Below are positions 19,520 through 63,530 of a DNA stretch of 64,000 nucleotides, one piece after another. The notes beneath the pieces were generated by a model that had not been told where the DNA came from, did no database searches, and saw only the letters and a program-made list of their open reading frames with translations. The stretch is taken from sequence record MK047718.1, one strand, 5' to 3'. This stretch comes from Escherichia phage p000y. The translations under genes and the position numbers were made by a program. Position 1 is the stretch's first letter. Every line of letters starts with the position of its first letter.

Positions 19520-20023
19520 ATGAGTCTTTACACTGAACTGAATAAAAAATCTGAAGAATCTGCTGAAACTATTTTTAAAAACGTGCAAAAGCGTATTTTA
19601 GAAAAGATGTATAACACTGCAGCTAAAGGTGAAAAATCTTGCCGGTTTCCGATGAGGTGTTCTTCCGATTTATGCGCAAATACTATTGAATGGCTGGAAA
19701 GTGAAGGTCTTACGGTAGAGAAAAACCCGGCGACTTCTATTGATAACGAATCATATATTAGTATTTCTTGGGATAAATCAAGGGTAGAAGAGAAAGATGG
19801 TGATTGGGTTGTAGATGTTAAAACTTCTGATGGTGGACGTTCTGTTGAAGTTTCAGCTGTAGTTAAAGGTACCCACGAACAAAGGACTTGGGGTTGGGGT
19901 GGTGAAGAAAAAGAAATTGTTCTTAGTGTGATTGCCAGGTCAACTAGTAATAAAATTGCACAAAGCATCATTGACGCTGCAATTGCTGAAGCAGAAAAAA
20001 TTTGCAAAATTAAAAATAAATGA
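19520..20023 (+). CDS. hypothetical protein
   Basis: 167-aa ORF with GAGGAG SD after early promoter. Confidence 0.65.
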   Translation: MSLYTELNKKSEESAETIFKNVQKRILEKMYNTAAKGEKSCRFPMRCSSDLCANTIEWLESEGLTVEKNPATSIDNESYISISWDKSRVEEKDGDWVVDVKTSDGGRSVEVSAVVKGTHEQRTWGWGGEEKEIVLSVIARSTSNKIAQSIIDAAIAEAEKICKIKNK

Positions 20024-20052
20024 TGTACAAGCACCAAGGATGGTGATACTAT
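20024..20052 (+). promoter_or_regulatory. early promoter (TGTACA -35, TACTAT -10)
   Basis: 17-nt spacer; spacer contains the shared AAGGATGG motif. Confidence 0.5.
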
Positions 20053-20082
20053 AGACTTATCAACTACAGAGGAGTAAACAAA

Positions 20083-36008: not shown

Positions 36009-36539
36009 ATGAAAACTGTAATTGAAACAACCGAGTTGTTTGGCGATTTATGTATCGAAAAACGTGGTTATGCTTACGTTCTGACACAAGAAGATGATGC
36101 TGTTACTATTCTTCCTATGGAACTGGACAAGATTTTGAAACTCAATCCGCCCGGCCATGCATCTGTAATTAACATTGATGAAGACCTTCAAGTTCGTTTT
36201 TATCACGGTCTTTATAGTGGGGTTAATATCGAAACAGAAGATGAATGCCTTTCTATCAATAATTGGAAAACATTCGTCACTAAGGTGAAAGAATTAATGG
36301 AATCTGAAACAGCCAAAAAGGCCAAACTTCAATGGGCTAAATGCCGTAATGCTTTTATTACAAATCAGGACCGCCCTGACTATACAACAGTCCTAGGCGT
36401 TAATCCTTCTTATGAAGACGGTGATGTCGTAGTTATTCGCCAAATTGATGACCTTCGTCAACATATCATTACATTAGACAAAGATGAAGCAGTTGCTCTT
36501 AAAGCTTATCTTGATTCTATTATCCCAACCTTGAAATAA
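36009..36539 (+). CDS. hypothetical protein
   Basis: ATG 36009 inside track ORF 35997. Confidence 0.65.
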   Translation: MKTVIETTELFGDLCIEKRGYAYVLTQEDDAVTILPMELDKILKLNPPGHASVINIDEDLQVRFYHGLYSGVNIETEDECLSINNWKTFVTKVKELMESETAKKAKLQWAKCRNAFITNQDRPDYTTVLGVNPSYEDGDVVVIRQIDDLRQHIITLDKDEAVALKAYLDSIIPTLK

Positions 36540-39406: not shown

Positions 39407-39543
39407 GCTTATAGGAAGTTCTGAGGTAACAAAAGCCATAAAGATGAATAATCATATGGCTTACCTCAAAGAAGGACACCAGGAACCTACTGAGGGCATA
39501 GAAATATTTAAAATAATGATGTACAAATCAAAGAGGATATGTT

Positions 39544-39831
39544 ATGGATTTTATGCAAAAAATTAAAGCCGCAGTCGAACTCTATGCTCATCGTATAGTT
39601 AGTTCTACGATGCAATATAGCGAGGAGGTTCGCCAGGACTCTTCCTTGAAAGGAAAAACTAAAGCCTTAATTACCTTAGATCGTTTGCAAAAGAATGCCA
39701 TAGAGATGCTCCAGTACGACAAGGGTGTATATAAGAAAGAACAGGAAGAGAAACTTAAATCTGAAAAATTACAAAAAATCCCGAAGTCTGTTTGGTTCAG
39801 TGGAAAAAATACCGAAAAAAGTTTCTTTTAG
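39544..39831 (+). CDS. hypothetical protein
   Basis: 95-aa ORF. Confidence 0.55.
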   Translation: MDFMQKIKAAVELYAHRIVSSTMQYSEEVRQDSSLKGKTKALITLDRLQKNAIEMLQYDKGVYKKEQEEKLKSEKLQKIPKSVWFSGKNTEKSFF

Positions 39832-39834
39832 TTG

Positions 39835-39862
39835 TTTACAAGGTCTATGGTTATGTTATTAT
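39835..39862 (+). promoter_or_regulatory. early promoter (TTTACA, 16 nt, TATTAT)
   Basis: Read from sequence. Confidence 0.5.
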
Positions 39863-39889
39863 AGACCTATCAACTACTGGAGGTAAAAC

Positions 39890-40417
39890 ATGAACGCTAA
39901 AGATATTTTCAACCTGGTAAATTATAACGACGGTAAATTTAAATCTGAAGCACAAAGCAAGTTCTTTAACGATGTTGCTTATGGTAACGAGATTACCGTG
40001 GATGGAGGTCAGATTTTCAAATCTCGCTGGAATTGGATTGTTATCATCGATTCAGTTGGAATTGTGGAAGTCTACAAAAACACTAACAAAAAACGTACAT
40101 TATTCTGGTCTCGTGAAACTAACGAGCAGTACAAAAAGGATAAAGCATCTCGTTTATCCAAAGTAACCCAGGAAGATATCGACTTCATCAAGAAAGATAT
40201 CGAGATGTACGAAAATTTAATTGCTGAAGACCAGGCAGTACTCGATAAGTTTGATGAAATTAAAGCTTCTCGTGAAATCCCTGACTTCATGAAAGAAACA
40301 GTAAACGAACGATACGCTCTCACTTCAGAACGTATTGCAAACTACACAAAACAGAAAGCAGAACGTATTAGTACTCTTCGGAAATTTGAAGAACGTTTAA
40401 AGACGGTTCACGCATAA
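39890..40417 (+). CDS. hypothetical protein
   Basis: 175-aa ORF with GGAGG SD. Confidence 0.65.
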   Translation: MNAKDIFNLVNYNDGKFKSEAQSKFFNDVAYGNEITVDGGQIFKSRWNWIVIIDSVGIVEVYKNTNKKRTLFWSRETNEQYKKDKASRLSKVTQEDIDFIKKDIEMYENLIAEDQAVLDKFDEIKASREIPDFMKETVNERYALTSERIANYTKQKAERISTLRKFEERLKTVHA

Positions 40418-40479
40418 ACGCTTTACCCAAGGACGGGTTATAATGGTTTTGAGTTCCAATTCAATCTGAGGAAATAGTT

Positions 40480-41475
40480 ATGAGCATTACATCTGATGCG
40501 ATAAAACATGAAATTAACGGTTTATGTGCTTCACAGATTAAAGTGTGGTTTAAAGACCATAATGATCGCAGAGCGCTTAATTATGAACGAATTGCTATCC
40601 AAGTTCATCAATTACTGGTTAGTAAATTTGATTTTCATATGCCGTCTGAAATCTATACTAATCTACCGCAAGCGCTTATTAAAGCGTGTAAAGGCTACGG
40701 AAAATCAATGGCTGATGGAATCTTCAGCGCGCTGAATAAACTTAACGTTCTGTCGATGATTAACTCTAACAATATCCTGCGTAATCTAGGACGTACTGAT
40801 TTGTTCGGTCGTGAACAGTGTAAAATGCCTTTGAAATGGATTGTTGCTCATCTTAACGAGAACCAAACACGTTTTATGGCCGTAACAGCACGTTTACAAA
40901 TGGGCCTAGATCGTCAGATGAACTTTAAAACTCATCCACGTTATTCAGGTTCAACTGACTTTTATAAATGTGAGCTTCAAAAGATTGCAGGCAAAACTGT
41001 CTTAGTAGTTCGTGTAACGTTTGAAGGACGTCGTCAAGGATATTTTGACCTAATCGGCTCTGGTCTCAAACATTGTGGATTTATCGACGAAGTTGATATC
41101 AAGCGAGACGGCACTGGATACCGTATTGGGTATGTTTGTACTCTTAAAGAAGAGATTTCAGGACCAGCACCAGGACTAAAAGACGTTAGATATAAAGACG
41201 AGCTAGTTGAAGAAATAAAAGAAGTTGAATACGATATCAACCAAGAAGATGCTCTTAAAGACCTTATTGACGAACTAAACCAAGACGTTATTCCGGTTCA
41301 GAAATTTGAATCAAAACATGCTGAGCAAATCAAATACTTTGAAGCTTTGATTAACGAACTTAATGTAACTATTCAACAGACTGACGATGAAATCTCACGA
41401 TTAGCAGGCTTAAATGGTAAAAATAAAACAGAACGAGCTAATCTTATTCAAGTAGTAAAACTTCTTAAGGAATGA
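40480..41475 (+). CDS. hypothetical protein with C-terminal coiled coil
   Basis: 331-aa ORF. Confidence 0.65.
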   Translation: MSITSDAIKHEINGLCASQIKVWFKDHNDRRALNYERIAIQVHQLLVSKFDFHMPSEIYTNLPQALIKACKGYGKSMADGIFSALNKLNVLSMINSNNILRNLGRTDLFGREQCKMPLKWIVAHLNENQTRFMAVTARLQMGLDRQMNFKTHPRYSGSTDFYKCELQKIAGKTVLVVRVTFEGRRQGYFDLIGSGLKHCGFIDEVDIKRDGTGYRIGYVCTLKEEISGPAPGLKDVRYKDELVEEIKEVEYDINQEDALKDLIDELNQDVIPVQKFESKHAEQIKYFEALINELNVTIQQTDDEISRLAGLNGKNKTERANLIQVVKLLKE

Positions 41476-41504
41476 TGTACAACCAAGGATGGTTGGAGTA
41501 TAAT
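41476..41504 (+). promoter_or_regulatory. early promoter (TGTACA, 17 nt, TATAAT), copy A of duplicated promoter
   Basis: Spacer CCAAGGATGGTTGGAG identical to copy at 42496. Confidence 0.55.
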
Positions 41505-41530
41505 AAATTTTTCAACATGAGGAATATAAA

Positions 41531-42490
41531 ATGGCTTTTATTACACGTAGAGAACTTATCAAAGAATTTACCTCGAACGCATATACCCCAGGACCTAATC
41601 CTATCCGTATGCCTGTAAAGACTCCTGAAGAGATTGAGGAAATCTGTTCATATTATGGGATTACTTCTCGTAAGTTTACTCAATTTGAATGCGTTACTAA
41701 CACACCCGTTAAAGAGTTCATTAAAAATGGTGAGTTCAGCCGTTTATTAGCCAAACAGAAACTTCGTAATTTTTGTATCGGCGGTGAAGGACAATATTTC
41801 GCTAAACAGTTCCGAAATAACCTTAACAATCTGATGGCCATTGCTTCTCGTATTCGTCCTCAAGCAATTAACATGAAACATTTGAAATATACTTATGATA
41901 AGTTAGAAATCATGGTTATCAGTGAGAATGAGTTCACTCTTACATATAAACCTAAGAATGATAACGTTGCTCGTGTATTCCACCAAGCGTTGGAAGTTTT
42001 AGGTGATAATATCCACCAGATTAAAGCGATTTATTCTCGTGAGCTTAATATTATCAACCCTATCAAGAATAAGGGCCATATCGCTATCCAGGCTCGTGTA
42101 TCTATTGGTAAAAAGGTTCCTGCGCCGTGGTGGCACAAAGACTCTGAATACTATCAAAATCTTAAAAAGGAAAATGCAACGTTTGAAGCATCGCTTACTG
42201 GGACCCCAATTGAACAGGCCGAAGTCCTAAGTGCTTATTCTACTTCGGGTAAATCAATGTTTAAAGGTTTGCCAAATGTGTGCAAACTGTCTGCAGTAAA
42301 ACTAAATGTTTCTAATGACCTTCTTCCGGCCGAAGATTACCATTACAATCAAATCAAGGCCACTATGGACCAACTGTCTGTTGAACTTGACAAAGCACAA
42401 GCTAAGCTTCGTGATGCTCAACAAGTAGTTACCAATCTCCAGTTGCAGTACTCTAAACTTTTTAACGCAATGAATGCATTAAAATCATAA
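41531..42490 (+). CDS. hypothetical protein with C-terminal coiled coil
   Basis: 319-aa ORF. Confidence 0.65.
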   Translation: MAFITRRELIKEFTSNAYTPGPNPIRMPVKTPEEIEEICSYYGITSRKFTQFECVTNTPVKEFIKNGEFSRLLAKQKLRNFCIGGEGQYFAKQFRNNLNNLMAIASRIRPQAINMKHLKYTYDKLEIMVISENEFTLTYKPKNDNVARVFHQALEVLGDNIHQIKAIYSRELNIINPIKNKGHIAIQARVSIGKKVPAPWWHKDSEYYQNLKKENATFEASLTGTPIEQAEVLSAYSTSGKSMFKGLPNVCKLSAVKLNVSNDLLPAEDYHYNQIKATMDQLSVELDKAQAKLRDAQQVVTNLQLQYSKLFNAMNALKS

Positions 42491-42495
42491 ATCAG

Positions 42496-42524
42496 TTTAC
42501 AACCAAGGATGGTTGGAGTATAAT
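42496..42524 (+). promoter_or_regulatory. early promoter (TTTACA, 17 nt, TATAAT), copy B
   Basis: Near-identical to 41476-41504. Confidence 0.55.
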
Positions 42525-42552
42525 GAATCTATCTTAACGAGAGGAAAATATT

Positions 42553-43497
42553 ATGACACGTTCACATTACATTGATTATTTTGCAGGTCTTATCGCTAAT
42601 GTTCATGCCCAACGTGCTTCTGGTTCATTAGGATTTGATGTTCCACACCGAGATGTAGTAAGTGGTATTCTTCGCGATTTTGGTACATATACCGGCCAAG
42701 AAAATCATATCTGTAAAGATACTCAAAATGCGTATTCTCATTCATTAGGGACACTGCTTCAATGGTTCAAACGTTCTCGTTTATTATCTTCTACTGTAGC
42801 TCGCGATAACATTAAAAACTTTATGAAACCGAGCTTTATTAAATCTGTGACATCTAAAACCGATTTGGTTGAATTCACTATTGTTAATGATGTTAAAAAG
42901 ACTCATTTAGCTGATTGGTTATCTACCATTCCTGAAACTAAATTTGCTGATAAATTTGCTTGTGAATTCAATAACCAAGTGAATATGCTTTTTAAACATT
43001 CTCGTAAATTATTCACTGGCGGTGATGGTCGTACAAATAAAGTTCATGTTAAAGATTGGGTTACTGCAGTATTCAAACCAACCGGTAATGGTAACGCATC
43101 ATTATCAATTGATATCCAGGTTCCTTATTACTACTCACGTAATCTCGGTACCATGAAAGCCGAAGAAATTAAGAAGCACAATAAAACCGTTCGTTCGCTG
43201 TCTTATAAACTTCGTATGATGTTACAGACTATGGATGTTGTTGAAATGTTCGACGAAACCGAAGATAACGGTTCAATGTTATTCAGTTCTCGAATTAAAA
43301 TTAAACTGAAGAACCCTAATGTGTTTAAGCCTATTAAAGAACCTAAAGCAGAAAAGGTTGATATCATGGCTGAAGAACGTGAGTACCTCAAATCTCGTCT
43401 GAAAGAAGTCGAAGCCCAGATTGCAGAACAAACTAAATCGTTAAAAGCTCTGAATGCGAAAGCGGATGGTTTACGAAATGCCATTGAGGTGTTATAA
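42553..43497 (+). CDS. hypothetical protein with C-terminal coiled coil
   Basis: 314-aa ORF. Confidence 0.65.
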   Translation: MTRSHYIDYFAGLIANVHAQRASGSLGFDVPHRDVVSGILRDFGTYTGQENHICKDTQNAYSHSLGTLLQWFKRSRLLSSTVARDNIKNFMKPSFIKSVTSKTDLVEFTIVNDVKKTHLADWLSTIPETKFADKFACEFNNQVNMLFKHSRKLFTGGDGRTNKVHVKDWVTAVFKPTGNGNASLSIDIQVPYYYSRNLGTMKAEEIKKHNKTVRSLSYKLRMMLQTMDVVEMFDETEDNGSMLFSSRIKIKLKNPNVFKPIKEPKAEKVDIMAEEREYLKSRLKEVEAQIAEQTKSLKALNAKADGLRNAIEVL

Positions 43498-43802
43498 TGA
43501 AACTACGTCTTCTAGAGGATATTGATATGAGCACTAATCATGGCTTGGTTAAGTTTATTGACGATAGTTCAAAGATTGAATTTGTTCAGCGAGATAAAAT
43601 CCACGGTGAAGAAGAGTTCGTTCCTCCGGCATGGAACGAAATAATGAAAATGGTTGAACGACGTGAAAATGCTGCCAAATCGGCAGCAAAACATCCATGC
43701 CCGGAATGTGGAACTATCCAAGTCCAACTGGTTAACTGGACCACTGATAACTTGAAATTGAAATGCCGTAAATGCTTCCACAAATTTGAGAGAACATTAT
43801 AA
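43497..43802 (+). CDS. zinc-ribbon protein, hypothetical
   Basis: CPEC...CRKC motif pair; start may be internal ATG. Confidence 0.55.
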   Translation: MKLRLLEDIDMSTNHGLVKFIDDSSKIEFVQRDKIHGEEEFVPPAWNEIMKMVERRENAAKSAAKHPCPECGTIQVQLVNWTTDNLKLKCRKCFHKFERTL

Positions 43803-44215
43803 TGAGATATAGCCTTCGTTGTTTTATCGCAGCTTTAGTTTTTGCTATTATTCCATTCATTTGGAACAGCCAGAATACTTACATGGAAACTAAAGTAATT
43901 CCTGTGGAGGTAGTGGAATTAATCTCAGGTCAATCTACAGGAAAATATTCTAAATTAGAATTTATTGCAGTCTATAAAGATGAGCAAGGACGAGTTTTTG
44001 ACAGGCATGTATCACCATCGTTTTATACGCTTCTGAATAAAGGTGATACGATAGCTATAGAAATTCGTGAGATGGATATCAAACAAACTACTAAAGATAA
44101 CTTGATTTGGTTCTTTGGTACGGTGTTGTTGGTTTCTATCTGTATCACAGGTTTTATTACATGTATTGTATTTGGCATTGCATATTTAATCGATGAAAGG
44201 AAAAATAATGTTTAA
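43802..44215 (+). CDS. membrane protein, hypothetical
   Basis: 137 aa, N- and C-terminal hydrophobic helices. Confidence 0.6.
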   Translation: MRYSLRCFIAALVFAIIPFIWNSQNTYMETKVIPVEVVELISGQSTGKYSKLEFIAVYKDEQGRVFDRHVSPSFYTLLNKGDTIAIEIREMDIKQTTKDNLIWFFGTVLLVSICITGFITCIVFGIAYLIDERKNNV

Positions 44216-44471
44216 AGTGTACGGGTACGACTCTACTATTCATAAATGCATTTATTGTGATAATGCGAAACGATTGCTGACTGTTAAGAAACAGCCATTT
44301 GAATTCATTAATGTTATGCCAGAAAAAGGTGTTTTTGATGATGAGAAAATTGCTGAGCTTCTGGTTAAGCTTGGACGTGAATCACAAGTCGGATTGACTA
44401 TGCCCCAAGTGTTTGCTCCTGATGGAACTTCGATTGGTGGCTTTGACCAACTACGAGAATATTTTAAATGA
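44208..44471 (+). CDS. nrdC: glutaredoxin NrdC
   Basis: MFKVYGYDSTIHKCIYCDNAKRLL... near-identical to T4 NrdC by recall; 87 aa. Confidence 0.92.
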   Translation: MFKVYGYDSTIHKCIYCDNAKRLLTVKKQPFEFINVMPEKGVFDDEKIAELLVKLGRESQVGLTMPQVFAPDGTSIGGFDQLREYFK

Positions 44472-44824
44472 CATATTCATTAAATCTTAAAGATTTCCAA
44501 GATGTATACGAAGTTTGTGCCAATGAACTTGGTCCTGATGCTCCAACTATTATTGAAGTTTTAAATGTGCTCCCTTCGTCATTAGCTTACGAAGCCAAAT
44601 CATGGGGTTGGAACGACACTGTCGTTCGTGATGACCTTTACGTCCTGATGAACGATATGATGGTTAAAAAGGCAGAACCGGTTGCACCAATGGTTACCAT
44701 TACCGTTGAAGAATATAATCGCCTGCAAGCCATTGAAGAGCTTCTGTGGAACATTGAATGTGACCTGCCATCAGGGCTAGAATCCTGGATTGATTATGAA
44801 GAGCTCAATAAACTCCGGGGTTAA
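44468..44824 (+). CDS. hypothetical protein
   Basis: 118-aa ORF. Confidence 0.6.
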   Translation: MTYSLNLKDFQDVYEVCANELGPDAPTIIEVLNVLPSSLAYEAKSWGWNDTVVRDDLYVLMNDMMVKKAEPVAPMVTITVEEYNRLQAIEELLWNIECDLPSGLESWIDYEELNKLRG

Positions 44825-60142: not shown

Positions 60143-62854
60143 ATGAAAGAATTTTACTTAACGGTTGAACAGATTGGTGATTCAATTTTTGAACGTTACA
60201 TCGATTCTAATGGCCGTGAACGTACTCGTGAAGTAGAATATAAACCATCACTGTTTGCTCATTGTCCAGAAAGTCAGGCTACGAAATATTTCGATATCTA
60301 CGGTAAGCCGTGTACTCGTAAGTTGTTCGCTAATATGCGTGATGCCTCCCAATGGATTAAACGCATGGAAGATATCGGACTTGAAGCACTTGGCATGGAC
60401 GATTTCAAATTGGCGTATTTGTCTGACACTTATAACTATGAAATCAAATACGACCATACAAAAATTCGTGTGGCTAACTTCGACATCGAAGTAACATCTC
60501 CGGACGGGTTCCCTGAGCCGGCACAAGCAAAGCATCCGATTGATGCTATCACCCATTATGACTCAATTGACGACAGGTTCTATGTATTTGATCTATTGAA
60601 TTCTCCATACGGCAATGTGGAAGAATGGTCTATCGAAATTGCGGCTAAGCTTCAAGAACAAGGTGGTGATGAAGTTCCATCCGAAATTATCGACAAAATT
60701 GTTTATATGCCGTTTGATAATGAAAAAGAATTATTGATGGAATATCTCAACTTCTGGCAACAGAAAACTCCTGTCATTTTGACTGGATGGAACGTTGAGT
60801 CATTTGATATTCCATATGTGTATAACCGAATCAAGAATATTTTTGGCGAATCTACTGCGAAACGTTTATCACCACATCGTAAAACTCGTGTTAAAGTTAT
60901 CGAAAACATGTATGGTTCTCGTGAAATCATTACATTGTTCGGTATCTCTGTTCTTGATTACATTGACCTTTACAAAAAGTTCTCTTTCACGAACCAACCG
61001 TCGTATTCTCTGGATTACATTTCAGAATTTGAATTGAACGTTGGTAAACTGAAATATGACGGCCCTATTTCTAAACTTCGTGAAAGCAATCACCAACGAT
61101 ATATTTCTTATAACATTATCGATGTGTATCGTGTATTGCAAATTGATGCTAAGCGTCAGTTCATCAACTTGAGTTTGGACATGGGTTATTATGCTAAAAT
61201 TCAGATTCAATCTGTGTTCAGTCCAATTAAAACATGGGATGCTATTATTTTTAATAGCCTTAAAGAGCAGAACAAGGTGATTCCACAAGGTCGTTCTCAC
61301 CCGGTTCAACCTTATCCTGGCGCTTTTGTTAAGGAACCTATTCCAAATCGATACAAATATGTAATGAGTTTCGACCTTACATCTCTGTATCCAAGTATTA
61401 TTCGCCAAGTGAATATTAGCCCTGAAACAATAGCAGGAACGTTTAAAGTAGCTCCACTGCATGATTATATTAACGCAATCGCTGAACGTCCTTCAGATGT
61501 GTACAGTTGCTCTCCTAACGGCATGATGTATTATAAAGACCGTGATGGTGTAGTTCCAACTGAAATCACTAAGGTCTTTAATCAACGTAAAGAACATAAA
61601 GGTTACATGCTTGCAGCTCAACGTAATGGTGAAATAATTAAAGAGGCATTGCATAATCCTAATCTTTCTGTTGACGAACCATTAGATGTTGATTATCGTT
61701 TTGACTTCACTGACGAGATTAAAGAAAAGATTAAAAAGTTGTCTGCTAAATCTCTTAATGAAATGTTGTTTAGAGCTCAACGTACTGAAGTTGCAGGTAT
61801 GACTGCACAAATTAACCGTAAATTGCTTATCAACTCACTTTATGGTGCACTTGGCAACGTTTGGTTCCGTTATTATGATTTGCGTAATGCTACTGCAATC
61901 ACAACATTTGGTCAAATGGCTTTACAGTGGATTGAACGTAAAGTTAATGAATATCTGAATGAAGTTTGTGGTACAGAAGGTGAAGCTTTCGTTCTTTATG
62001 GTGATACAGACTCTATTTACGTATCTGCTGATAAAATTATCGATAAGGTTGGTGAATCTAAATTCCGTGATACCAACCATTGGGTAGACTTCTTAGATAA
62101 GTTTGCTCGTGAACGTATGGAACCTGCTATTGATAGAGGTTTCCGTGAAATGTGTGAATACATGAACAATAAACAACACTTAATGTTCATGGACCGAGAA
62201 GCTATCGCTGGGCCTCCGCTTGGTTCTAAAGGTATTGGCGGATTTTGGACTGGTAAGAAACGTTATGCATTAAACGTGTGGGATATGGAAGGTACTCGTT
62301 ACGCTGAGCCTAAACTCAAAATCATGGGTCTCGAAACACAGAAATCTTCGACTCCTAAAGCAGTACAGAAAGCTCTTAAAGAATGTATTCGTCGTATGCT
62401 TCAAGAAGGTGAAGAATCATTACAAGAATATTTTAAAGAGTTTGAAAAAGAATTCCGTCAATTGAATTATATTAGCATCGCGTCGGTATCTTCTGCGAAT
62501 AACATTGCTAAATATGATGTAGGTGGATTCCCGGGTCCTAAATGCCCGTTCCATATTCGTGGAATTCTGACATATAACCGAGCTATCAAAGGTAATATTG
62601 ATGCACCACAAGTTGTAGAAGGTGAAAAAGTATATGTTCTGCCTTTACGTGAAGGAAACCCATTCGGTGATAAATGTATCGCATGGCCTTCTGGTACTGA
62701 AATCACAGATTTAATTAAAGACGATGTACTTCATTGGATGGACTACACTGTTCTCCTTGAGAAGACATTTATTAAACCACTTGAAGGATTCACATCAGCA
62801 GCTAAACTCGATTACGAGAAGAAAGCATCTCTGTTCGATATGTTTGATTTTTGA
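60143..62854 (+). CDS. 43: DNA polymerase gp43 (family B, RB69-type)
   Basis: 903 aa; exo motifs FDIEV and YNIIDVYRV; pol motifs DxxSLYPS, KxxxNSxYG, YGDTDS; matches recalled RB69 gp43 sequence. Confidence 0.97.
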   Translation: MKEFYLTVEQIGDSIFERYIDSNGRERTREVEYKPSLFAHCPESQATKYFDIYGKPCTRKLFANMRDASQWIKRMEDIGLEALGMDDFKLAYLSDTYNYEIKYDHTKIRVANFDIEVTSPDGFPEPAQAKHPIDAITHYDSIDDRFYVFDLLNSPYGNVEEWSIEIAAKLQEQGGDEVPSEIIDKIVYMPFDNEKELLMEYLNFWQQKTPVILTGWNVESFDIPYVYNRIKNIFGESTAKRLSPHRKTRVKVIENMYGSREIITLFGISVLDYIDLYKKFSFTNQPSYSLDYISEFELNVGKLKYDGPISKLRESNHQRYISYNIIDVYRVLQIDAKRQFINLSLDMGYYAKIQIQSVFSPIKTWDAIIFNSLKEQNKVIPQGRSHPVQPYPGAFVKEPIPNRYKYVMSFDLTSLYPSIIRQVNISPETIAGTFKVAPLHDYINAIAERPSDVYSCSPNGMMYYKDRDGVVPTEITKVFNQRKEHKGYMLAAQRNGEIIKEALHNPNLSVDEPLDVDYRFDFTDEIKEKIKKLSAKSLNEMLFRAQRTEVAGMTAQINRKLLINSLYGALGNVWFRYYDLRNATAITTFGQMALQWIERKVNEYLNEVCGTEGEAFVLYGDTDSIYVSADKIIDKVGESKFRDTNHWVDFLDKFARERMEPAIDRGFREMCEYMNNKQHLMFMDREAIAGPPLGSKGIGGFWTGKKRYALNVWDMEGTRYAEPKLKIMGLETQKSSTPKAVQKALKECIRRMLQEGEESLQEYFKEFEKEFRQLNYISIASVSSANNIAKYDVGGFPGPKCPFHIRGILTYNRAIKGNIDAPQVVEGEKVYVLPLREGNPFGDKCIAWPSGTEITDLIKDDVLHWMDYTVLLEKTFIKPLEGFTSAAKLDYEKKASLFDMFDF

Positions 62855-62894
62855 TATAATGCCAAGGACGGCCAACTAATTAAATGAGAGAAAT

Positions 62895-63530
62895 ATGAAA
62901 ACTACACCAATCACTATCGCTATTGACGCAATCGTAAAACAAGCTTCATCTCTTGCCACTATGGCTAAAGTAATTAGTCAAAACCCTGCTCGTTATAATG
63001 CTATTCTAGAAACTCTTCGACGCCCGGGACTTAGTAATTATGAAAGCCGAGTAATTATTACAGGTGTTGGTAAGAACGCTAATATCGCAACTAAAGCTTC
63101 CGAGACTTTTGCTTCACTCGGTATCCCAAGTATGTACTTGAACACTGGGCATTATTCTCATGGTGACGCAGGATTTATTGCACCTAATGATGTATTAGTT
63201 CACATCAGTCGTTCTGGTAAGACTGAAGAAATGATAGGTGTTGCTAAACATCTTCGTATGATTCGTCCTCAGGTTAAACAGATTCTGTTACATTGTAACC
63301 CTGACATTCCACAAGAATACGAAGCTCTTTTTGATTATACGTTCTGTACCGGTATCGCGGTAGAAGTTGACGAGAACTCTTTAGCTCCGACAATGTCTAC
63401 TACATTGTTGTTAGCGCTTATCGATACGTTCGCTATCAACCTTTCGTCTGAACGTGGATTTACCTCTAATGACTTCCTTAAGTTCCATCCAGGCGGTGCA
63501 CTAGGTGCCATGTTACGAGGCGAACAATGA
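62895..63530 (+). CDS. SIS-domain sugar-phosphate isomerase-like protein (KdsD/GutQ-type arabinose-5-phosphate isomerase fold)
   Basis: 211 aa; SIS hallmarks GVGKNANIATKASETF...HGDAGFI...VLVHISRSGKTEE. Confidence 0.75.
   Translation: MKTTPITIAIDAIVKQASSLATMAKVISQNPARYNAILETLRRPGLSNYESRVIITGVGKNANIATKASETFASLGIPSMYLNTGHYSHGDAGFIAPNDVLVHISRSGKTEEMIGVAKHLRMIRPQVKQILLHCNPDIPQEYEALFDYTFCTGIAVEVDENSLAPTMSTTLLLALIDTFAINLSSERGFTSNDFLKFHPGGALGAMLRGEQ

Follow-up and report, generated by a model that had tools for sequence, protein, structure and literature searches.

Closest described systems and the locus

The closest described systems to the locus analysed here, three consecutive genes with promoter repeats between them in a 64,000-nt stretch of Escherichia phage p000y (sequence record MK047718.1; hereafter the window), are a counter-defence gene of phage T4 and a class of early promoters known as PeSLs. 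A T4 deletion mutant plates neither on ECOR17 nor on MG1655 with the ECOR17 gene dsr1, which encodes a SIR2-domain (sirtuin) defence protein, and plasmid-borne T4 nrdC.5 restores plating of the mutant on MG1655 with ECOR17 dsr1 (Srikant et al. 2022, eLife, PMC9391042). PeSLs combine an early promoter with a stem-loop that mostly lies between -35 and -10, and are repeated in hyperplastic regions, where shuffling of such cassettes has been proposed (Arbiol et al. 2010, PMC2839356; Comeau et al. 2014, PMC4122927). The early-promoter consensus of T4 and PST is TTTACW-N17-TAYWAT (Comeau et al. 2014, PMC4122927).

The block in the window comes from an RB69-like T-even phage (Mosigvirus), in which it forms the nrdC.6-nrdC.5-nrdC.3 part of 'nrdC-mobD', a hyperplastic early region that is non-essential. 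The explanation that we favour, and consider reasonably probable, is that the three genes are T-even-restricted paralogs of about 300 amino acids (aa) that were duplicated in tandem and serve in early counter-defence. The open reading frames (ORFs) concerned are the following:

40480-41475, + strand: nrdC.6 homolog (ORF1), Mosigvirus allele class, 331 aa
41531-42490, + strand: nrdC.5 homolog (ORF2), RB69-type allele, Pfam family DUF7235, 319 aa
42553-43497, + strand: nrdC.3 homolog (ORF3), 314 aa

Start positions and lengths were exactly those given by an earlier reading of this DNA made without database searches (the sequence-only reading).

Synteny and homology identified the surroundings as an RB69-like Mosigvirus early region. 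Over 3.4 kb, the block shares 96-99% DNA identity with more than 130 sequenced coliphages. The only relative whose taxonomy was checked, ST0 (NC_041990; 97.5% identical to the block), belongs to Straboviridae, Tevenvirinae, Mosigvirus (RB69 group), and all three genes are annotated there as 'hypothetical protein'. Along the + strand, the direction of early transcription in the window, the gene order is nrdC.11,.10,.9,.8,.6,.5,.3,.2, an nrdC.7-like membrane ORF, nrdC, pin, and gene 49, which parallels the order in T4 and VR7. Each of the three ORFs has a Shine-Dalgarno sequence (GAGGAA) 6-8 nt before its ATG. On the opposite strand of the block, the ORF listing gave short ORFs only and no convincing feature, and an Rfam scan of 40300-43700, intergenic hairpins included, returned no family.

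ORF1 matched phrog_2257 (E-value, E = 3e-127) and the hidden Markov model (HMM) of the NrdC.6 family (E = 1e-142), and its homologs carry precomputed Pfam PF26899 annotation. With NrdC.6 of T4 and VR7 it shares 31-35% identity over ~236-261 aa, the map position after nrdC.8, and the tail motif NVTIQQxDDEIxRLxGLN...LLK; it differs from them in a longer N-terminus (331 versus 275-295 aa), the first ~66 residues being unmatched. ORF2 matched DUF7235 over its full length (profile 1-307 of 307, E = 4.5e-123, 411 bits with a cut-off of 30), as did T4 NrdC.5 (E = 5e-126, 420.6 bits), which places both proteins in the same family. Identity of ORF2 is 95% to RB69 NrdC.5 but 24-25% to T4 NrdC.5. The RB69-type allele class is present in 132 phage records, and the position of nrdC.5 between nrdC.6 and nrdC.4/.3 is kept in the window, T4, VR7, and at least 15 IMG/VR loci.

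ORF3 shares 57% identity with T4 NrdC.3 over the full 314 aa (E = 4e-123) and 29-32% local identity with NrdC.4. It matched phrog_1435 (E = 9e-102), a gene of this type is named nrdC.3 in RB32, and all 34 of its database relatives carry PF26897, the NrdC.3-type model, seen as precomputed annotation on these relatives. Assignment of ORF3 to nrdC.4, as its position might suggest, was rejected in view of its full-length identity to T4 NrdC.3, of which it is the ortholog. Both NrdC.3 and NrdC.4 of T4 share with ORF3 the N-terminal region and the C-terminal helix, whereas nrdC.4 is absent from the window phage. That the third gene is nrdC.3 is new.

Many GenBank records (e.g. OR525701, OQ076693, and MN850622) label homologs of nrdC.3, nrdC.5, and nrdC.6 as 'thioredoxin'. 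The label looks like a carry-over from the neighbouring nrdC gene; Pfam and homology searches gave no thioredoxin similarity for any of the three proteins.

Distribution, divergence, and counter-defence

Gene content varies between lineages. T4 carries nrdC.6,.5,.4, and.3 in a row (275, 340, 333, and 308 aa, respectively), RB69-like phages carry.6-.5-.3, and VR7/JS98-like contigs.6-.5-.4. Searched exhaustively with the profile HMM of NrdC.3, a set of 1.84 billion representatives yielded five clusters, all of them T-even NrdC.3 or NrdC.4, and no relative outside T-even phages. At more distant T4-like loci (L020-L030), other genes lie upstream of nrdC, with no member of these families. The three genes are also strongly diverged: identity to T4 is 31% for NrdC.6, 24% for NrdC.5, and 57% for NrdC.3, versus 77-90% for NrdC.11, NrdC.10, NrdC.8, NrdC, and gp49. 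In the phage database each of the three falls into discrete allele classes, of which NrdC.3 has at least three (above 90%, about 75%, and about 56% identity). The genes are dispensable: both MZ375356, a T4 clone with a reduced genome, and experimentally evolved T4 (Srikant et al. 2022, PMC9391042) have lost part of the block.

Dispensability, divergence, patchy presence, and restriction to T-even phages are traits typically seen in host-range or arms-race genes. They speak against an alternative that we regard as unlikely, namely that the genes are diverged paralogs with mostly some other early role in host takeover or regulation (e.g. binding a nucleic-acid or metabolic machine), the effect of NrdC.5 on Dsr1 being indirect or specific to T4. 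The genetics concerns a single T4 paralog, and the literature searched offered neither a mechanism for NrdC.5 nor a function for nrdC.3, nrdC.4, or nrdC.6; searches that included PADLOC returned nothing resembling a known defence or anti-defence family, and two products of neighbouring genes, NrdC.10 (ATPase-like) and NrdC.11 (nucleotidyltransferase), hint at activities of another kind in this region. Such a role fits poorly, however, with genes that the phages can do without on laboratory hosts, that differ extremely even among closely related phages and fall into discrete allele classes, that come and go from phage to phage, and that remain confined to T-even phages (5 matches among 1.84 billion representatives).

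The sequence-only reading had described a large uncharacterised early block. This does not apply to nrdC.5, as its T4 version is the published Dsr1 counter-defence gene. Window and T4 NrdC.5 agree in full-length membership of DUF7235, map position, early context, size, and a coiled coil ending ...L.NA(L/M)NAL(N/K), but window nrdC.5 has its own PeSL promoter, whereas T4 nrdC.5 abuts nrdC.6 and has no promoter of its own. An anti-Dsr1 role for the window allele is uncertain. The phage protein DSAD1 inhibits the defence-associated sirtuin DSR2 by direct binding. For NrdC.5 we propose a mechanism of this kind, direct binding to a defence sirtuin, by analogy only: DSAD1 comes from other phages and has another target (DSR2), and there is no evidence of homology, no sequence comparison having been made here.

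C-terminal helices

In all three proteins, and in their T4 and VR7 relatives, the last proline lies 48-59 residues from the end and is followed by a helix-prone tail:

41296-41469, + strand: C-terminal helical tail of NrdC.6, residues 273-330 (heptads 284-308, a GLNGKNK break, and a terminal helix ending ...ERANLIQVVKLLKE)
42329-42484, + strand: C-terminal coiled-coil helix of NrdC.5, residues 267-318 (AlphaFold2 and heptads)
43345-43494, + strand: C-terminal helix of NrdC.3, about residues 265-314 (heptad run 279-314, ending ...GLRNAIEVL)

We considered a tail to be a coiled coil when it formed a proline- and glycine-free helix with sustained hydrophobic periodicity at a/d positions over at least four heptads. 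The strongest pattern was that of NrdC.5, with 16 consecutive a/d positions (265-317), for which 0 of 200 and 0 of 500 shuffles were as good. NrdC.3 displayed a moderate pattern (11 a/d positions, 279-314; 4 of 500 shuffles as good by one score and 22 of 200 by the other). In NrdC.6 the pattern was weak, with 8 a/d positions (284-308) followed by a glycine-rich break (21 of 500 shuffles; second test not significant). By this definition ORF2 is predicted to end in a coiled coil, ORF3 is a borderline case, and the tail of ORF1 is not one continuous coil. The earlier statement that each ORF ends in a heptad-rich coiled coil thus holds strongly for ORF2, moderately for ORF3, and only weakly for ORF1, whose heptads are short and interrupted. 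In the AlphaFold2 models, residues 267-318 of ORF2 form a single helix with a predicted local distance difference test (pLDDT) score of 54-73, the only part of that model above 50, whereas ORF1 has broken helices at 256-330. The tail of the NrdC.3/4 profile gave weak PDB matches to parallel coiled coils (a GCN4/M-protein chimera with E = 0.012, keratin, and geminin).

The very ends of the tails are alike, namely ...LIQVVKLLKE (NrdC.6), ...LFNAMNALKS (NrdC.5), and ...LRNAIEVL (NrdC.3). A motif defined post hoc from these ends, L-x-x-[AV]-[ILMN]-x-x-L-K, was found in 3/3 of these ORFs and in 1/113 of the other window ORFs of at least 80 aa. In this respect, the suggestion of a common C-terminal helix and of proteins that belong together was borne out.

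The sole other window ORF of at least 80 aa with this end motif encodes 176 aa (36009-36539, + strand) and ends in ...AYLDSIIPTLK. A further observation concerns the T4 reference NrdC.6 (NC_000866, 52066-52893; 275 aa), whose C-terminal end, ...EELIFLFNNMMMKFSDYLD, is divergent and shorter than that of ORF1. NrdC.6 of very close T4 relatives has 295 aa (contig L006, 4958-5845) and runs on as ...EELNISIQQYDDEIFRLSGL...LLKS. From this comparison, the tail of the T4 reference gene seems to be frameshifted or truncated and to lack the terminal helix of the family.

Relationship among the three proteins

Pairwise BLASTP among the three proteins gave no significant similarity. To this extent the sequence-only view of unrelated N-terminal domains stands, but it does not extend to the level of profiles, which were built from 30 related loci. 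Profiles of NrdC.3 and NrdC.4 matched each other over residues 2-230 with an hhalign probability of 97.9% (E = 3e-13; HMM E = 1e-12 to 1e-15), which makes the two clear paralogs. NrdC.5 matched the merged NrdC.3/4 profile with 90.6-94.5% (E = 1.3e-6 to 8e-8), and its N-terminal region alone matched that of NrdC.3/4 with 85% (E = 6e-6, z-score, z = 12.5). For NrdC.6 the probability varied with the alignment between 68.7% and 93.9% (E = 4.5e-5 to 1.6e-7); the top value (93.9%, E = 1.6e-7) came from one alignment set, and locally built ones gave 69-78%. This match is collinear over 213-221 columns, which extend from about residue 70 to the end of the protein and include the tail. Column-shuffled nulls of the same composition reached a maximum score of 22, compared with 44-54 observed. 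Comparisons of the tails only were weaker than those of the heads, and a conserved helix, K-x-(G/S)-R-L-L-S-R..A...L.NF, was aligned in all three profile comparisons. Another match to the NrdC.3/4 profile (90.7%, E = 1.3e-6) was a 324-aa protein with a C-terminal helix (L017:5212-6186), encoded on a more distant T4-like IMG/VR contig whose NrdC is 75% identical; by this match, it can be regarded as a further, divergent member of the superfamily.

Comparison of predicted structures, suggested by the sequence-only reading, was informative for the order of elements only. With shallow alignments, AlphaFold2 returned a mean pLDDT of 47.6 for ORF1 and 39.7 for ORF2, which is too poor for fold assignment. 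Both models nonetheless agree in the succession of elements, which begins with N-terminal helices and continues with beta-hairpin(s), a helix, two strands, a linker, and the long C-terminal helix. When BFVD was searched by Foldseek with the NrdC.6 model, the matches ranking below its own family were ~300-aa proteins of other phages, most of them T4-like, with low TM-scores; these include proteins of Enterobacter IME523 (E = 7.5e-5), Yersinia fPS-65 (308 aa), and Acinetobacter Acj61 and 133. The same search with the ORF2 model returned RB69 NrdC.5 alone. Foldseek matches in the PDB (de novo designs and DesK) had TM-scores below 0.36 and were rejected as meaningless. Sequence and profile searches of the PDB with shallow and diverse alignments gave no homolog, the tails yielding only weak coiled-coil matches, and Pfam, NCBIfam, and PADLOC contained nothing informative beyond DUF7235, with weak sub-threshold hits to coiled-coil families.

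Whole-gene tandem paralogs are therefore the better reading than the modular family suggested earlier, in which N-terminal effector domains without common ancestry all carry one and the same oligomerisation helix at the C-terminus; duplication of whole genes followed by divergence fits the shared order of secondary-structure elements better than domain shuffling does. We consider the modular family improbable. It would account for the lack of BLASTP similarity, for the separate families in which PHROGs and Pfam place the proteins, for the tail and end motif being by eye their best conserved shared feature, and for an N-terminal region of NrdC.6 that by itself is not significantly similar to the others. 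It is at odds, however, with the NrdC.5 N-terminal region, which alone matches that of NrdC.3/4, with the homology of NrdC.3 and NrdC.4 over precisely the 'head' (residues 2-230), with NrdC.6 being collinear with NrdC.3/4 from about residue 70 to the end, with the element order of the two AlphaFold2 models, and with tail-only comparisons weaker than head ones. That the proteins are three unrelated ORFans of similar length by chance, with generic amphipathic C-terminal helices and profile matches that are artefacts of helical composition, is highly improbable: alignment diversity was low (effective number of sequences, Neff, about 2-3), hhalign probabilities stayed below 95% and the AlphaFold2 models were poor, but composition-identical shuffled controls never came near the observed scores, the NrdC.3/NrdC.4 homology is unambiguous, the divergent L017 protein matched independently, and the end motif separates these ORFs (3/3) from the others (1/113).

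On the tandem-paralog reading, NrdC.3, NrdC.4, NrdC.5, and probably NrdC.6 would form one superfamily, a new, if modest, point.

Promoter and hairpin cassettes

The sequence-only reading had also noted virtually identical promoters before the second and third ORFs, a point that was confirmed. The longest direct repeat in 39500-44500 measures 36 nt (41478-41513 and 42498-42533; 92% identity), with none expected by chance. Its first 27 nt, TACAACCAAGGATGGTTGGAGTATAAT (41478-41504 in the ORF2 copy), are identical before ORF2 and ORF3. Together with a related element before ORF1, the following cassettes were delineated:

41476-41504, + strand: early-promoter/hairpin cassette of PeSL type before nrdC.5 (TGTACA-N17-TATAAT, score 10/12)
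42496-42524, + strand: early-promoter/hairpin cassette of PeSL type before nrdC.3 (TTTACA-N17-TATAAT, score 11/12)
40422-40444, + strand: collapsed PeSL-like element before nrdC.6 (TTTACC-N11-TATAAT, hairpin ACCC-AAGGAC-GGGT)

In the promoter scan, the first two were the best sigma-70-like + strand sites in 36-46.5 kb, the nrdC.3 copy being the top site overall. Both are intergenic, fit the T4/PST consensus, and are followed by a Shine-Dalgarno sequence and ATG, and both contain a hairpin inside the promoter, between -35 and -10: the spacer hairpin CAACC-AAGGAT-GGTTG (41480-41495 in the nrdC.5 copy and 42500-42515 in the nrdC.3 copy), which appears in the minimum free energy fold. As judged from these features, nrdC.5 and nrdC.3 are each predicted to have their own strong early promoter of PeSL type, with the hairpin in the spacer. 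The element before nrdC.6 was not picked up by the promoter scan; it is probably not a working sigma-70 promoter because its spacer has only 11 nt, and nrdC.6 may consequently be read from the promoter before nrdC.8 (39835-39862).

The cassettes share with published PeSLs the intergenic site, the sigma-70-like early promoter, the stem-loop between -35 and -10, the Shine-Dalgarno sequence and start codon that follow, and the repetition in a hyperplastic region, where they flank variable accessory genes. They differ in the hairpin: it is short here (4-6 bp), its AAGGAY loop is conserved, and its stem varies and covaries; published stems consist of a G-run/C-run in RB49 and AGNA/TCNT in PST/T4, and the window hairpin matches neither. 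Before nrdC.6, nrdC.4, and nrdC.3 in T4-, VR7-, and JS98-like genomes, the AAGGAY loop is kept and the stem is changed in a compensating manner; the element before nrdC.6, with a covarying stem, likewise recurs before nrdC.6 in T4-like and VR7-like loci. Stems seen were (i) ATACC/GGTAT, (ii) GCCAC/GTGGT, (iii) ACCC/GGGT, (iv) AGCC/GGCT, (v) CATCC/GGATG, (vi) CTTCC/GGAGG, and (vii) GCACC/GGTG. Across loci, ten hairpin versions had 90% of cells paired and changes on both sides in 4 of 5 pairs, with the caveat that the instances had been selected by requiring at least three closing pairs. The AAGGAY hairpin with covarying stems as a common feature of the local PeSLs is new.

Intergenic folds did not exceed shuffles in stability (z = -0.5 to -0.7), and a terminator scan of the region did not list the spacer hairpin. 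A role of the hairpin as intrinsic terminator was not supported, given its weak stability and lack of a U-tract.

Further AAGGAY hairpins were noted on the + strand elsewhere in the window. One, GCACC-AAGGAT-GGTG at about 20031 (20020-20060), lies inside a promoter-like site, TGTACA-N17-TACTAT; the other, GCC-AAGGAC-GGC at about 62859 (62850-62880), lies just after a TATAAT and upstream of the ORF at 62895-63530. The promoter upstream half AATGATGTACAA is common to sites at 39502-39526 (before nrdC.9), 41458-41482 (before nrdC.5), and about 20015-20030 (+ strand). Related early-promoter cassettes may thus form a small family that extends along the window.

Proposed history and function

The course of events that would fit the favoured explanation begins with a unit of gene plus promoter that was duplicated in tandem, the copies then diverging under host pressure. 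Recombination at the repeated cassettes would have swapped genes or removed them, and would explain the contents.6-.5-.3,.6-.5-.4-.3, and.6-.5-.4. The proteins would act as early counter-defence factors, as published genetics indicates for T4 NrdC.5 against Dsr1. Their N-terminal alpha/beta region may be the variable specificity part that binds a host defence protein, and the C-terminal coiled coil may make the inhibitor a dimer or higher oligomer; different paralogs or allele classes could target different defence proteins or variants. In its most extended form, which is possible but which we hold to be doubtful, NrdC.3-.6 would be a single T-even-confined superfamily of oligomeric counter-defence proteins, each paralog or allele class tuned to its own defence protein (Dsr1 and T4 NrdC.5 being the first pair). 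The AAGGAY-hairpin PeSL repeats would then be the sites of recombination through which new specificities travel, each as a cassette of gene plus promoter.

Several observations weaken this picture. The anti-Dsr1 result concerns T4 NrdC.5, which is only 24-25% identical to the window allele. The N-terminal region of NrdC.6 alone gave a weak match (E = 0.024, z = 2.2), its link to the others needs the tail, and helical low-complexity tails can inflate profile scores. As the direct comparison of NrdC.6 and NrdC.5 profiles was not significant either, the NrdC.6 link is probable, not proven. With mean pLDDT values of 40-48 and Foldseek TM-scores of 0.2-0.34, statements at the fold level are weak. 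Oligomerisation through the tails is deduced from heptad patterns alone, and the pattern is poor in NrdC.6. Similarly, PeSL-mediated exchange is deduced from differences in gene content between lineages and from cassettes that flank variable genes; the hairpin itself lacks a U-tract and is thermodynamically weak, and a role as terminator is doubtful here.

The genes and promoter cassettes are of known kinds, one of the families has a published function, and the superfamily link adds a modest new point; nothing here overturns current views, and most of the finding is ordinary. Should the paralog reading be right, the T4 NrdC.5-Dsr1 pair offers a handle on three uncharacterised T-even families and their allele classes, and the genes provide both a small, well-defined set of candidate inhibitors to be screened against the defence systems of E. 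coli and a natural series for how an inhibitor scaffold is retargeted. A warning also follows for nrdC.5 itself, as the RB69-type and T4-type alleles are too diverged (~24% identity) for a common target to be assumed. The locus is, in addition, a clear local example of PeSL-type cassettes flanking host-range genes.

Other genes in the window

Two further ORFs on the + strand deserve mention. A predicted membrane ORF of 137 aa (43802-44215) is 41% identical to T4 NrdC.7. It lies between nrdC.2 and nrdC, whereas T4 nrdC.7 lies between nrdC.8 and nrdC.6; the differing position points to a gene that was relocated locally, inside the hyperplastic region. An ORF of 211 aa (62895-63530), which immediately follows the gene for the RB69-type DNA polymerase (60143-62854), resembles by eye a SIS-type sugar-phosphate isomerase (GVGKN...SRSGKTEE). 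RB69 arabinosylates its own hydroxymethylcytosine, and we presume that this ORF could belong to the arabinosylation pathway.

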